NCBI GenBank assembly: GCA_964016885.1
Contig: OZ024749.1
Coordinates: 15,872,001 to 15,936,000 of the forward strand
Origin: Eledone cirrhosa
Taxonomy: Eukaryota
DNA length: 64,000 nucleotides
Direction of reading: 5' to 3'
In this document: piece after piece, positions 18,278 to 62,404 of the stretch
How positions within the stretch are numbered: position 1 is the stretch's first letter
How the letters are laid out: every line of letters begins with the position of its first letter
Position numbers and translations under genes: made by a program
Notes under the pieces: model-generated
Told to the model about the DNA's origin: nothing
Database searches by the model: none
What the model saw: the letters and a program-made list of their open reading frames with translations, nothing else

Positions 18278-18692
18278 TTGGTGTTGGATGCTTAAAGCGT
18301 CCGTATGCGGTAGGCCGTATGAGCACTCGATGCTCTTACAGAGCAGAGTATAATATCACATAAGAAACGGAGAATCAGTGGTGCGACGAAAGGAATTTAT
18401 TGGACATATTACAATTGTTTCTCGGGCAACCAGCTCGAGGCACGATCGATGCAATGATCAAACCTGACTCTGAAATCGCAAGATCCTCAGATATTTCTCG
18501 ATTCTACGAAGCAGATTTTCCTATTAATAGAAAAATCTGCTTCGTAGAATCGAGACATATCCGAGGATCTTGCGATTTCAGAGTCAGGGTTGATCATTGC
18601 ATCGATCGTGCCTCGAGCTGGTTGCCCGAGAAACAATTGTAATATGTCCAATAAATTCCTTTCGTCGCACCACTGATTCTCTTTTTATCTGG
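18278..18692 (-). mobile_element. Palindromic hammerhead-bearing insert, family A (palindrome 18370-18681 plus one-sided tail 18278-18369)
   Basis: Spacerless 312-bp inverted repeat centred at 18525/6. Right arm: gacatat CCGAGGA..GAAAC aatt GTA atatgtc c AATAAA. The left arm has CTGAGGA on the minus strand. Flanked by direct repeat gatgttgattatata. Confidence 0.85.
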
Positions 18693-21420
18693 GATGTTGA
18701 TTATATATATATATATATATATATATATATATATATATATATATATATATATATATATATATATATATATATATATATATATACATATATATATATATAT
18801 ATATAGCGAGATCTGTCCACGCCTTGAACCGTGTGACACCTAAAAGTCAAATTCTAGGTCACCATCCTTTTCGGTGTAAACAGGTTCATGCGTGGGCGAT
18901 CCTTTAAAGGCATGGACAGCTCTCGCTACATTAGTTCCCTACCCAGATCGATGGAGGAGCAGGGATCGATCACGTAGGGGTCACCAATGTAACGAAGGGT
19001 ATTTCTCATTGTTGTTAGATGAAATAACAAGAATAGTTGATTTATTTTATATATAAAAAGGTTTACTTCACTTCAGTCAGAAAGAACAACAAACAAGTTA
19101 CCTATATATATGTGTGTGTGTGTATATATATATATATATAAGACGTGTAATTTTAGGAAGATTTGGCTGCTATTTATACCACTTTCAGAAGCCGTTTATG
19201 GGCTCTGTCATTATCTCACGTCCATGACAGCGAATATGTGTTATGTGTATATATGTGTGTACGTATGTGTGTGTTGTATGTGTGTATATCGGTATGTTTT
19301 GTGCAGTGGTACTTGTATGGTTCTGTTTCTATGTGTGTATGTGCACGCGCGTTCGTGCGTCTGTTTTTGTGTGTGCTCATGTGTGTTTTTGTTTGTTTCT
19401 GTGTGTCTTTGTATGTGTGTCGTTTTGTGTGTGTCTGTTTGTGTGTTTGTATGTGGGTATTTATGTATGTGTACGTATGTGTGTGTGTGTGTTTATATAT
19501 ATATGTGTGTTTGTATATCTACATTTAATCAGTAGTTTACGGAAGAATCCTTACAAACTCTAAGTCTGTCGTCCTTCATAGTCATTGATTCAACGTAACA
19601 ACATGGCGCTATTTTTAGGTCGTCTGCTTCAGACAGTTTTCATGAAATCAGCGAAAAGTAATGGCGTCGTCGTCGTCGTCGCTATATTTGCCTCGCTTGG
19701 TGCAACTTCCAATATAACTAATGTTTGACCAAACATCTAATAAAATTTGCATCATCTCTATGTGTTCATCTATCTATCTATCTATCTATCTATCTATCTA
19801 TCTATCTATCTATCTATCTATCTATCTATCTATCTATCTATTATATATATACATATATATATAGCAGTAAATAAAGGATTATGAGTTCATGCAATTGACT
19901 TATGTTTCGTCACTATACATATATCTATAGATATATACATATATATATATATACATAGATATATATACATAGATATATATACACACACACATATATATAT
20001 GCGTGTGTGTGTGTGTGTGTGTGAGAGAGAGAGAGAGAGAGAGTTTGTGTGTGTGTGCGTTTGCGCGCGCGTGCGTTTGTGTTTGTATAACACTACCCTT
20101 AGGTGTGAAAAGGAAAAGGGAAAAACAGTGCTCCACCAGGAAGAGAGCAGAAATATATTATTTATTTATTTTCATACATAGAACAAAATTCCAAGGTTTC
20201 AAGGTTTCAAGGCCCAAGTTTGACCATTCCTCCAGAATACAAGAGACATCAAACCGAGCTGCCTTTCAAATTCTCAAGACTTCAGTACCCTGTTAGAGTC
20301 AGTTTTACTATGACCACAGATAAAGCTCAGGCTCAGAGTTCCAAAGTTGTAGGATTGAATACAAGAGAATCACTGTTTACCCATGGGCAGTTATAGATAG
20401 ATTGTTCATGAGTGGAAACAACTAAAAATGTTCATATACCATGCACAAACGGTAAAACTCTGGTGTATCTGGAAGATTTTTTACTGTTTTTCTTTTCCAC
20501 TCACATACACACATACACCACGGCTTTGCCTCATACTGTAAACCAGACAAACATCCAATACAGTCATTTTTTCTTCTACCGTTCTTCTCTTATCATCTGT
20601 TTACCCTGGCAAAGCTGGGTAAAGATACACATACACACACAGATATATGTGTGTGTGTGTTGTTGTTGTTGTTGTTGTAGTTTGAATTTTGAATCTTTGC
20701 TTTTGCTGTTAGAGTTGCTTTTTTTATATATATTTAGTAGTTTATACCTGACAGAACAAATCTATGATTACAGGCTTTCCATTTGTGACCATCCCATCTC
20801 GTTTTCCGGAAAAATATTTCTAGCATTACATTTATTTCATGTATCCTTCCATTTTAATGGCATTGGCGTTATTTGAGGGAGATTTGACTGCTATATTTAG
20901 GAGAGTTGTTATAGTTACTGCTGTTGTTGTTGTTATTGTTTCTTTAGTCATTTTTGAAAACAAAACACACACCCATTCACACAAACACTCAAACAAACGC
21001 GTACATACATACACATACACACACAAACCAACACAGGCATAAACACACACACATACACACACACACACACACACACACACCGCACACACACACACACATA
21101 CACACACACACACACACCAACACTGGCATAAACGCACACACACACACACCAACACAGGCATAAACACACAAAAATAGCGTTAAAACTCACATACTAAAAC
21201 ACCTCCATACACACCGGTGTTCGTGCGCACACACACACGTGGTCATATACACATATGTAGACATTCACATACACACACATTTCAACCACAATAACAACCA
21301 CAACAACAACAACAACAACAACAACAGCCCCACTCACAACAACAACAACAACCAGTGCAATAATTCTCAGCTCCAGTCTTGAATTTGATCATACTTCGAT
21401 GGTGTCGTATTATTAATAAT

Positions 21421-22550
21421 GTTGTTGTCGTTGTTGTTACTGTCGTTGTTGTTGTTGTTGTTACTGTCGTTGTTGGTGTTGGTGGTGGTGTTGTTGTTGT
21501 TGGTGGTGGTGGTGGGAGTGCTGTTGTTGTTGGTGGTGGTGGTGTTGTTGTTGGTGGTGGTGGGAGTGTTGTTGTTGTTGGTGGTGGTGGTGGTGGTGGG
21601 AGTGTTGTTGTTGGTGGTGGTGGTGTTGTTGTTGGTGGTGGTGATGTTGATGGTGGTGTTGTTGTTGATGGTGGTGGTGGGAGTGTTGTTGTTGTTGGTG
21701 GTGGTGTTGTTGATGGTTTTGTTGGTGGTGATGGTAGTGGAGGTGTTGATGGTGGTGTTGGCGTTGTTGTTGGTGTTGTTGGTGGTGGTGTTGATGGTGG
21801 TGTTGGTGGTGGCGTTGGTGGTGTTGGCGTTGTTGCTGTTGGTGGTGTTGGTGGTGGTGGTGTTGGCGTTGTTGGTGGTGTTGGTGGTGTTGGTGTTGGT
21901 GGTGATGGTGGTGGTGTTGGTGATGTTGGTGGCGTTGGTGCTGTTGGTGGTGTTGTTGGTGATGTTGGTGGTGGTGTTGGTGGTGGTGTTGGTGGTGGTG
22001 TTGGTGGTGGTGGTAGTATTGATGGTGTTGGTGTTGGTGGTGTTGGCGTTGGTGGTGTTGGTGGTGTTGTTGGTGGTGATGGTGTTGGTGTTATTGGTGT
22101 TGTTGTTGGTGTTGGTGTGGTGTTGGTGTGGTGTTGGTGGTGGTGGTTTTGTTGTTGTTGGTGGTGGTGGTATTGATGGTGGTGTTGGTGGTGGTGGTAG
22201 TGTTGTTGTTGGTGGTGATAGTGGTGGTAGTGGTGTTAGTATTGGTGGTGTTGGTGATGTTGGTGGTGTCGGTAGTGGTGTTGGTAGTGGTGTTGTTGGT
22301 AGTGTTAGTGTTATTGATGTAGGTGTTATTGTTGCTGGTGTTGGTGGTGCTTGGTGTTATTGGTGGTGCTGTCGTTGGTGGTGCTGATAGTAGTGTTGTT
22401 GTTGTCGTTTGTGGGTTTGTTGTTGTTGTTGTTGGTTGTGGTGTTGTTGTTGTTGTTGGTGGCGATGGTTGTGCTGTGGTTGGTTGTGTTGTTGTTGTTG
22501 TTGTTGGTGGCGATGGTTGTGCTGTGGTTGGTTGTGGTGTAGTTGCTGCC
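21421..22550. repeat. (GTT/GGT)n low-complexity tract
   Basis: Direct reading. Confidence 0.9.
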
Positions 22551-22606
22551 GTTAGTGCCATATTTGTAATCTGATCTCTTTTGTTATAACTCGATTATTT
22601 AAATAG

Positions 22607-61919: not shown

Positions 61920-62291
61920 GTAGAAGGTGAGTAATATTGTAGAACAATAAAACTATGCATATATCAGATAATTAGCACTCAACAGTTGGTAGAACTGGAG
62001 TATATATATATATTAAAGAAGAAATTAAAAGATGGTTAAAAGAGTTCCATATATTTTATTATGCGCATTTCGAAAACAACATCATCCTGGGACAAAAATT
62101 GTGTTCTCATCAGATAAAATAAGGTAATATGATATGAGGCCTAAAAACACTTGTGAACAAGAAAGTATATGTAGACTGGACACTTTCCTGTTGACAAGTG
62201 TTTTTAGGCCACATATTATGTTACCTTGTTTTTGAAATGCGCAAAATAAACTATATGGAACTTTTTTAACCATCTTTTAATTTCTTCTTTT
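61920..62291 (-). mobile_element. Palindromic hammerhead-bearing insert, family D second copy (inverted repeat 62014-62291 plus tail)
   Basis: Homologous to 56483-56909. Minus strand tttat CTGATGA gaacaca..tgttttc GAAA tgcgc ATA ataaa. The right arm has lost the CTGATGA/stem II block. Confidence 0.85.
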
Positions 62292-62311
62292 ATATATATA
62301 TATATATACAC

Positions 62312-62404
62312 ATTTTGAGTATATGTTGGTTGTTTACCGAGACCTTAGTATGCAGATTGGAGCACTCAACGAAGTACGCAGGTTTGTTTGGTTACTCCGG
62401 AGTA
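62312..62404 (-). mobile_element. Tail of a family B insert, interrupted by a Helitron
   Basis: Colinear with 40027-40118 (atgttggttgt..agtatgcag..ggagcactc..ggttactccggagta). Confidence 0.75.

Follow-up and report, generated by a model that had tools for sequence, protein, structure and literature searches.

The stretch analysed here (the window) comprises 64,000 nucleotides of the Eledone cirrhosa genome (GenBank assembly GCA_964016885.1, contig OZ024749.1, positions 15,872,001 to 15,936,000) and carries retrotransposon insertions in (TA)n runs. An earlier note on the window had listed nine GYACTC-like words near TA junctions, which read GAGTRC in ribozyme sense, and all nine were found (18321, 27011, 40074, 41116, 41346, 49312, 56536, 61973 and 62360). 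They lie in insertions of seven families, F1 to F7, all of which are, by their sequence marks, Hydra-clade Penelope-like elements (PLEs). GAGTRC belongs to a hairpin which is usually twinned between the hammerhead ribozyme and the start codon of these elements, and we consider it probable that each copy docks the reverse transcriptase (RT) such that copying starts about 6-7 nt upstream. The features of the window are as follows, with labels beginning with L denoting further loci and copies.

18277..18701, minus strand: F1 insertion, head-to-head 5'-truncated copies with a tail on one side, set in (TA)n; the core of the hammerhead-like region is altered
18323..18349, minus strand: F1 hairpin copy 1, in the tail; full-length copies continue to a second hairpin and an ATG
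26829..27062, plus strand: F2 head-to-head insertion with tail
26990..27016, plus strand: F2 hairpin copy 1; second hairpin and ATG in L313 and L318
40025..40568, minus strand: F3 head-to-head insertion, tail at about 40025-40122
40076..40117, minus strand: F3 hairpin copy 1, long loop; Hydra endonuclease upstream in L141, second hairpin and ATG in L289
40186..40222, minus strand: type I hammerhead core in the tailed F3 arm
41075..41280, minus strand: F4 insertion, hammerhead core at 41187-41209
41117..41137, minus strand: F4 hairpin copy 1, degenerate, intact in other copies; a family without canonical second hairpin
41306..41475, minus strand: F5 insertion with tail
41348..41373, minus strand: F5 hairpin copy 1; second hairpin, ATG and Hydra endonuclease in L301-L312
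47954..47975, minus strand: probable extra hairpin, a GAGUGG variant lying 43 nt ahead of a TA run, absent from the earlier list
49276..49482, minus strand: F6 insertion, hammerhead core at 49386-49407
49314..49335, minus strand: F6 hairpin copy 1, variant with 1-nt bulge; this copy reads GGGU
56483..56904, minus strand: F7 insertion, hammerhead core at 56623-56669
56538..56564, minus strand: F7 hairpin copy 1; second hairpin and ATG in L325-L332
57088..57153, minus strand: extra hairpin, a GAGAAC variant with a long loop, in the tail of the head-to-head insertion 57019-57399, absent from the earlier list
61975..62001, minus strand: diverged F7-type hairpin copy 1; insertion at 61920-62290, hammerhead core at 62068-62113
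62362..62403, minus strand: diverged F3-type hairpin copy 1; tail at 62309-62407

The insertions follow the layout (TA)n, inverted 5'-truncated copy, direct copy, tail, (TA)n, and each motif site lies in the single-copy tail; the site at 62360 belongs to a tail fragment only. Nine sites represent seven families, with 40074 and 62360 falling into F3 and 56536 and 61973 into F7, while a tail sequence is common to 18321 and 27011. The word at 27011 appears in the opposite orientation because its element is reversed, and the 49312 copy reads GGGTGC where other copies of its family have GAGTGC. Distances from the motif to the TA-type junction were, in site order, 44, 44, 49, 41, 40, 36, 53, 53 and 51 nt (for 41116 to a (TATG)n run, pure TA being 70 nt away), and this range of 36-53 nt is in good agreement with the ca. 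37-55 nt given before. A near-fixed distance to the tail end held only loosely, the values ranging from 38 to 96 nt genome-wide (22 family representatives); the constant part is the step of about 6-7 nt from an insertion end to the next hairpin. Canonical CUGANGA hammerhead cores were found at only five of the nine inserts (families F3, F4, F6 and F7), with F1, F2 and F5 having an altered core or none that was found. Hammerhead-like regions of the latter three families consist of GAAAC plus a short palindromic stem III without the CUGANGA core (window 18440-18470, minus strand, and 26870-26915; L313, L345, L346 and L301).

As the motif had been picked after the fact in the window, it was tested on other stretches of the same genome. 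Sixty fixed-step 10-kb stretches (600 kb) yielded 677 TA-junction flanks, among which sense GAGTRC had 51 matches at 40-69 nt, compared with 0-5 per 10-nt bin elsewhere, and GAGTAC was the top-ranked hexamer. Because one family contributes many raw matches, flanks were clustered into 376 groups. At this level GAGTRC was found in 18 groups against 5.8 expected (control zone 6, antisense 7) and, counted 35-75 nt before (TA)n junctions, ranked 2 of 2048 six-mers, behind TGAGYG, which overlaps it. Positional enrichment over control TA flanks, the absence of which the earlier note had named as refuting its proposal, is thus present outside the window.

The linear motif is real and accounts for just one half of the signal. 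In the bulged hairpin RCUC-[stem]-UN-GAGYRC, GAGTRC supplies the 3' strand, a 2-nt bulge directly precedes GAG and the upstream RCUC pairs with GAGY; outside this genome GAGCAC is the dominant form (A at that position in 67 of 73 instances). In the 600-kb sample, the hairpin with a 2-nt, U-first bulge occurred in 57 of 674 flanks, compared with 4, 1 and 2 flanks when the bulge measured 1, 3 or 4 nt. Controls gave 33 for a zero-bulge register, 21 for antisense and 0-5 for shuffles; the first two counts may in part reflect the symmetry of RCUC/GAGY. When clusters were selected by GAGYRC alone, the hairpin was present in 15 of 32 (12 of the 14 multi-copy ones; shuffle mean 0.5, maximum 4).

Metagenome contigs scanned with a 40-protein alignment provided 78 loci, 69 of them with a mapped endonuclease end and 32 of these 69 with a hammerhead plus 100 nt beyond it. 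The motif was carried by 26 of these 32 informative loci, and the remaining six comprise four apparently blunt-end copies, one false hammerhead match and one degenerate case. From the metagenome loci, 73 distinct hairpin instances were picked by sequence only. Inner pairs 1, 2 and 3 were Watson-Crick in 70, 48 and 44 of them (shuffle means 40, 20 and 19, with a maximum of 55 for pair 1; none of 5000 shuffles as high), inner pair 1 being C-G in 48 and U-A in 22. U opens the bulge in 72 of 73, and inner pair 1 forms in 71 with a 2-nt bulge compared with 0-23 for other bulge sizes. Since hairpins vary in length, covariation was scored by pair counts in equal-length subsets of 13 and 16 of the 69: the 13 longer hairpins gave 0.405, reached by none of 500 shuffles, a type of test that kinship among sequences can inflate. 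The stem does not extend past the R-Y pair in the 73 instances, and the RCU 3' of GAGY is conserved yet single-stranded. A self-complementary palindrome for dimerisation (kissing) was rejected, as the dominant GAGCAC breaks self-pairing.

A covariance model built from the 13 outside sequences gave 10 matches in 13 own-genome loci, nine at hairpin coordinates, and none in five loci of Neptune-clade PLEs. Matches away from recognised tails were also seen in the window (25405-25447 and 31220-31258, plus strand; 20122-20159, minus strand) and may be old fragments or chance. No Rfam family matched the sites among the best 150 of 313 matches, which were low-complexity, palindrome- or repeat-driven microRNA-type hits below the gathering score. 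Likenesses to twister, twister-sister, pistol, HDV and telomerase P6.1, checked by this Rfam scan, were considered and dropped. No relatives were found in the viral contigs searched.

Assignment to the Hydra clade follows from the proteins. Full-length copies tie all seven families to open reading frames (ORFs) with RW and/or DKT motifs, and for F3 (40074) and F6 (49312) the upstream walk reaches GIY-YIG domains with a CxCX5C linker and CxxC/CxH marks. A single ORF combining RT and C-terminal GIY-YIG was found for F3 (894-residue frame), F6 (722) and the further family H4 (738), and F5 has its endonuclease upstream of the tail; the GIY-YIG match had an E-value of 6.5e-4, below the curated cut-off. 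RxRW is present in F1, F2, F3, F4, F5, F7 and H4, and DKT in F3-F7 and H4, compared with DKG in the Neptune controls. In the C-terminal check, which covers F3, F5, F6 and H4, CxCX5C, CxxC and CxH without CCHH were complete in F3 and H4, while F6 showed the linker and C-terminal motifs and F5 the C-terminal motifs. Marks of the Neptune clade (CX2-5CxxC linker, DKG, CCHH) were absent from hairpin-bearing ORFs and present in controls. In a midpoint-rooted tree confined to own ORFs and database homologues, six own ORFs grouped with seven homologues, apart from four Neptune-type ORFs, with 100/100 support. Insertion into (TA)n also fits the clade, whereas unit lengths of 3.5 kb (F5 tandem period) and 4 kb (H4) exceed its tendency towards less than 3 kb. 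The families, described before as unrelated, are therefore related although their DNA no longer aligns: Hydra-clade marks are found in the ORFs into which all seven run, and protein identity among the six long ORFs is 35-54%. A predicted Hydra-type structure (predicted local distance difference test score, pLDDT, 91) was matched best by TERTs, among them TERT in complex with a telomerase RNA junction; such matches are to be expected and leave the binding surface undefined. With at least 150 endonuclease copies each, at 100% and 96-100% identity, and open frames of ca. 740 and ca. 890 residues, H4 and F3 look very recently active.

In Neptune-clade elements of the same genome, the RCUC/GAGY hairpin was found at none of 21 ends from five families (some blunt ends being tailless anyway) and at neither of two full-length junctions. 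The Neptune-type elements L121, L123 and L124 have two end sites, tails of ca. 40-60 nt and both ends at TA-rich steps, and the L121 tail contains a near-miss small hairpin; Neptune-type elements may use a different signal.

Full-length elements usually have two hairpin copies between ribozyme and ATG. This was seen in F3 and H4, where the tail continues into a second hairpin followed by the ATG, and a second hairpin directly after the tail end, predicted beforehand, was found in F5, F7, F2 and F1 by searching for tail end plus CTC. Among 50 metagenome ORF starts, two hairpins, spaced by 43-98 nt, were found at 19, a single one at 14 and none at 17, with many of the last group lacking upstream sequence. 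Insertions end about 6-7 nt before hairpin copy 1 (blunt end) or copy 2 (tailed end), which is why the distance from motif to junction equals hairpin spacing minus a constant; tails in this genome measure ca. 60-165 nt. Counted from the first C of CUC, position -7 or -6 falls within the modal junction window in 13 of 15 family-site pairs; the F7 blunt and F4 tailed ends deviate. Further, the hairpin is preceded by an AU-rich stretch with several TA steps, and in 39 of the 73 instances from outside this genome a TA begins at -7, compared with 0-21 at other offsets. The distance from hairpin 2 to the ATG varies widely, whereas that from hairpin to insertion end is tight.

Each fully typed head-to-head insertion has one blunt and one tailed end. 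Of 71 head-to-head pairs, 48 were blunt plus tailed, none blunt plus blunt and none tailed plus tailed, and 21 of the 48 came from loci not selected by a tail. In a second count of 63 blunt-plus-tailed pairs, arms were equal within 25 nt in 37, the blunt arm was longer in 19 (by up to 2.3 kb) and the tailed arm in 7; eight further calls of like ends resolved, by coordinates and by the first count, into six read-through copies, a locus edge and a tail cut short. Where the blunt arm exceeds the tailed arm in length it cannot have been copied from the tailed complementary DNA (cDNA), nor can a tailed arm derive from the blunt cDNA, which implies two separately templated copies. Fold-back of a single cDNA as source of the inverted arm is ruled out by the 19 longer blunt arms, barring later deletions. 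In contigs of two of three runs, TA loose ends were found at the tailed end. Both arms often stop at the same family-specific place (ca. 60-70 nt in F5 and F4, 210-230 in F3, 177 in F7), and these shared stops were probably caused by structures halting the RT.

Other ends and tails touch on the same subject. L342 shows an F1 tail end, a short TA step and then the hairpin and tail of an H4-type family, a junction that could be either a nested insertion or an inter-family template jump. At 49041-49164 and 59420-59619 the window has blunt ends that belong to a further Hydra-type family (L051, L125) and to a Neptune-type one (L091). An abundant TA-inserting family has a 56-nt tail (tails of L042, L055, L057, L060 and L135; window 1912-2010), and one longer copy, L034, runs into a hairpin-like GCUC/GAGC element.

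These results are best read as a cis signal that the families have in common and that serves RT recognition or priming, as had been proposed from the window. From the hairpin covariation, the twin arrangement, presence in the clade and absence from the Neptune ends examined, the end offset and the blunt and tailed ends observed here, we infer the following protein steps. The RT protein would bind the hairpin in RNA; the endonuclease would nick both strands of the (TA)n target, and the UA at about -7 would pair with each 3' end. From hairpin 1 and hairpin 2, two enzymes, which may form a dimer on a single transcript, would then start and copy towards the 5' end, and the two cDNAs would be joined at their far ends. 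Two starts and joined cDNAs would result in an inverted repeat with a one-sided tail of hairpin-spacing length. A bolder form, which we put forward tentatively and hold to be somewhat short of an even chance, is programmed twin priming, in which two identical bulged hairpins of a single RNA are held by a dimeric telomerase-like RT, and each hairpin serves as a ruler for the UA site 7 nt upstream. If true, twin priming would explain the inverted pseudo-long terminal repeat (pLTR) with its one-sided tail and would represent a minimal retroelement counterpart of the RT-binding stem and alignment region of telomerase RNA.

Several findings weigh against docking at twin hairpins. In case of the end types, 23 of the 71 pairs lie outside the count, 13 having a read-through copy and 10 one untyped end, and junctions, determined by exact mapping, are blurred by TA microhomology with many anchors untypable. 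F4 has no canonical second hairpin and nevertheless a defined tail end at -12 to -10 from the nearest CUC, while F6 combines a 1-nt bulge with an atypical long second hairpin. The 16 short second-type hairpins showed weak covariation (0.108, 3 of 500 shuffles). Outside this genome the four RCUC/GAGY pairs hardly vary, so that support for their pairing comes from the outer pair, which switches between A-U and G-C (14 and 8 of the 22 representatives, which were chosen on pairing). At 40074 and 41116 the minimum-energy fold deviates towards an alternative, evidence for the strand (G-U against A-C) is weak, and the covariance model recovers only three of nine window sites at E<10 and also matches places other than tails. 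In F4 (L333-L340; abundant, with 134 pattern matches), a small perfect 4-bp hairpin stands in place of the second hairpin, and the tail end is fixed.

One alternative, which we regard as unlikely, is that the hairpin acts in DNA, with the GIY-YIG endonuclease recognising it in single-stranded or extruded element DNA and cutting a TA about 6-7 nt away, such that ends arise from resolution of an intermediate. Some GIY-YIG enzymes cut at a set distance, and a TA at a fixed offset would suit a nick site as well as a priming site. The tail has been attributed to endonuclease resolution (Craig et al. 2021, PMC8557442), and the Drosophila virilis endonuclease needed tail sequence for recognition (Frangieh et al. 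2024, PMC11167929). However, the tail ends of the Poseidon element in the latter study coincide with measured RT starts, longer blunt arms require two separately templated copies, covariation requires a single-stranded fold, and the frequent U-U at the second inner pair (13 of 73) is suited to RNA. We judge it slightly less likely again that the hairpins are general protein-loading or folding signals (for cis preference, dimer assembly or hammerhead help) and that starts are set mainly by the adjoining AU-rich unpaired RNA. The preserved F4 tail end, the several TA steps in the upstream region and a protein-assisted Poseidon hammerhead (PMC11167929) would all be accommodated; the clustering of junctions at -7/-6 at 13 of 15 sites despite nearby TA steps, and the enrichment of TA exactly at -7, would not.

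In most full-length copies the start codon follows shortly after hairpin 2, and PLE promoters have been located in the same region (PMC8557442), so a promoter, splicing or translation element of the 5' untranslated region (UTR) has to be considered. We find this very improbable, as a factor binding double-stranded DNA would yield no covariation and it is the insertion end, not the ATG, that keeps its distance. Chance, or neutral inheritance from common ancestors in a few abundant families, could draw on the many raw matches from one family and on the post hoc choice of the motif, but it is already contradicted by the cluster-level enrichment (rank 2 of 2048), the hairpin shuffles and the covariation, and the hairpin is kept with compensatory changes across proteins 35-54% identical and in other animals; we give it hardly any credence. 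Docking of the RT at the hairpins is thus the reading that we retain.

Two features of the window stand apart from the insertions. A 69-bp tandem array of 13 kb occupies 3625-16918 (193 copies, 96% matches), and near-identical kilobase-scale direct duplications were seen at 62418-63303 and 63314-64000 and at 53195-54242.

In conclusion, the motif is a genuine cis element, not a product of chance and apparently unpublished, in a retrotransposon clade that is already known, and the mechanism proposed from it for the PLE tail is specific and testable. The origin of inverted, one-side-tailed PLE insertions is a named open question (PMC8557442), and the single in vitro study found mapped two internal start sites and, in the text examined, reported no conserved signal (PMC11167929). 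With a length of about 25 nt and an offset that is fixed, the hairpin makes the mechanism testable by exact mutants and provides a nucleotide-level marker for Hydra-clade fragments and their ends. As PLE RTs are the sister group of telomerase, the result also has a bearing on how the placing of a short primer-template alignment came to be the task of an RNA stem, and a portable start signal could serve engineered insertion tools.

Compared with the Hydra clade of C-terminal endonuclease-containing PLEs (PMC8557442), the elements described here have in common the RW and DKT motifs, CxCX5C, CxxC/CxH around E/N and lack of CCHH, as well as (TA)n targets, hammerheads (with canonical cores in F3, F4, F6 and F7) and an inverted truncated copy with a one-sided tail. 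They differ in tail length (ca. 60-165 nt compared with 30-40 nt) and unit length (3.5-4 kb compared with less than 3 kb, the latter stated as a tendency). By eye, three of the six new Hydra consensus sequences of that study contain the exact hairpin (Hydra-2_Amil, Hydra-1_Ajap and Hydra-2_Ajap, from coral and sea cucumber), Hydra-1_Amil and Hydra-1_Crog a partial one and Hydra-1_Obim none. The main-text and supplement portions examined make no mention of hairpin, twin arrangement or offset, and no description of the hairpin was found in the literature searched. In case of Poseidon_Ac (PMC11167929), RT starts at two internal sites bounding the tail, both strands are extended and a dimer is predicted. 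Alike are the tail between two internal RT starts at the pLTR-ORF junction, the AT-rich target and the cutting and extension of both strands. Poseidon_Ac differs in having its start in a stem loop that is AC-rich and lies inside the ORF, without target homology and with no conserved twin motif reported in the text and supplement text. The Hydra-type elements instead have two conserved 5' UTR hairpins just 3' of each end and UA microhomology. The two-start-site pattern of a Poseidon-type tail agrees with the end types found here, 48 blunt plus tailed and none alike among 71 pairs.

Neptune-clade PLEs of the same genome share (TA)n targeting, a hammerhead-like core and two end sites with a tail, and the RCUC/GAGY hairpin is missing from their 21 ends in five families. 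Structured RNAs that bind an RT and position its template include CR4/5 or stem IV of telomerase RNA, hepadnavirus epsilon and the R2 3' UTR. The hairpin resembles these in its proposed role, and no sequence or Rfam match was found among the best 150 of 313. In LINE-1 twin priming, two target strands prime two cDNAs to give an inversion, with an opportunistic second site and non-overlapping arms. The inversion from two cDNAs is alike in both systems, whereas in the Hydra-type elements both sites are fixed and the arms overlap.

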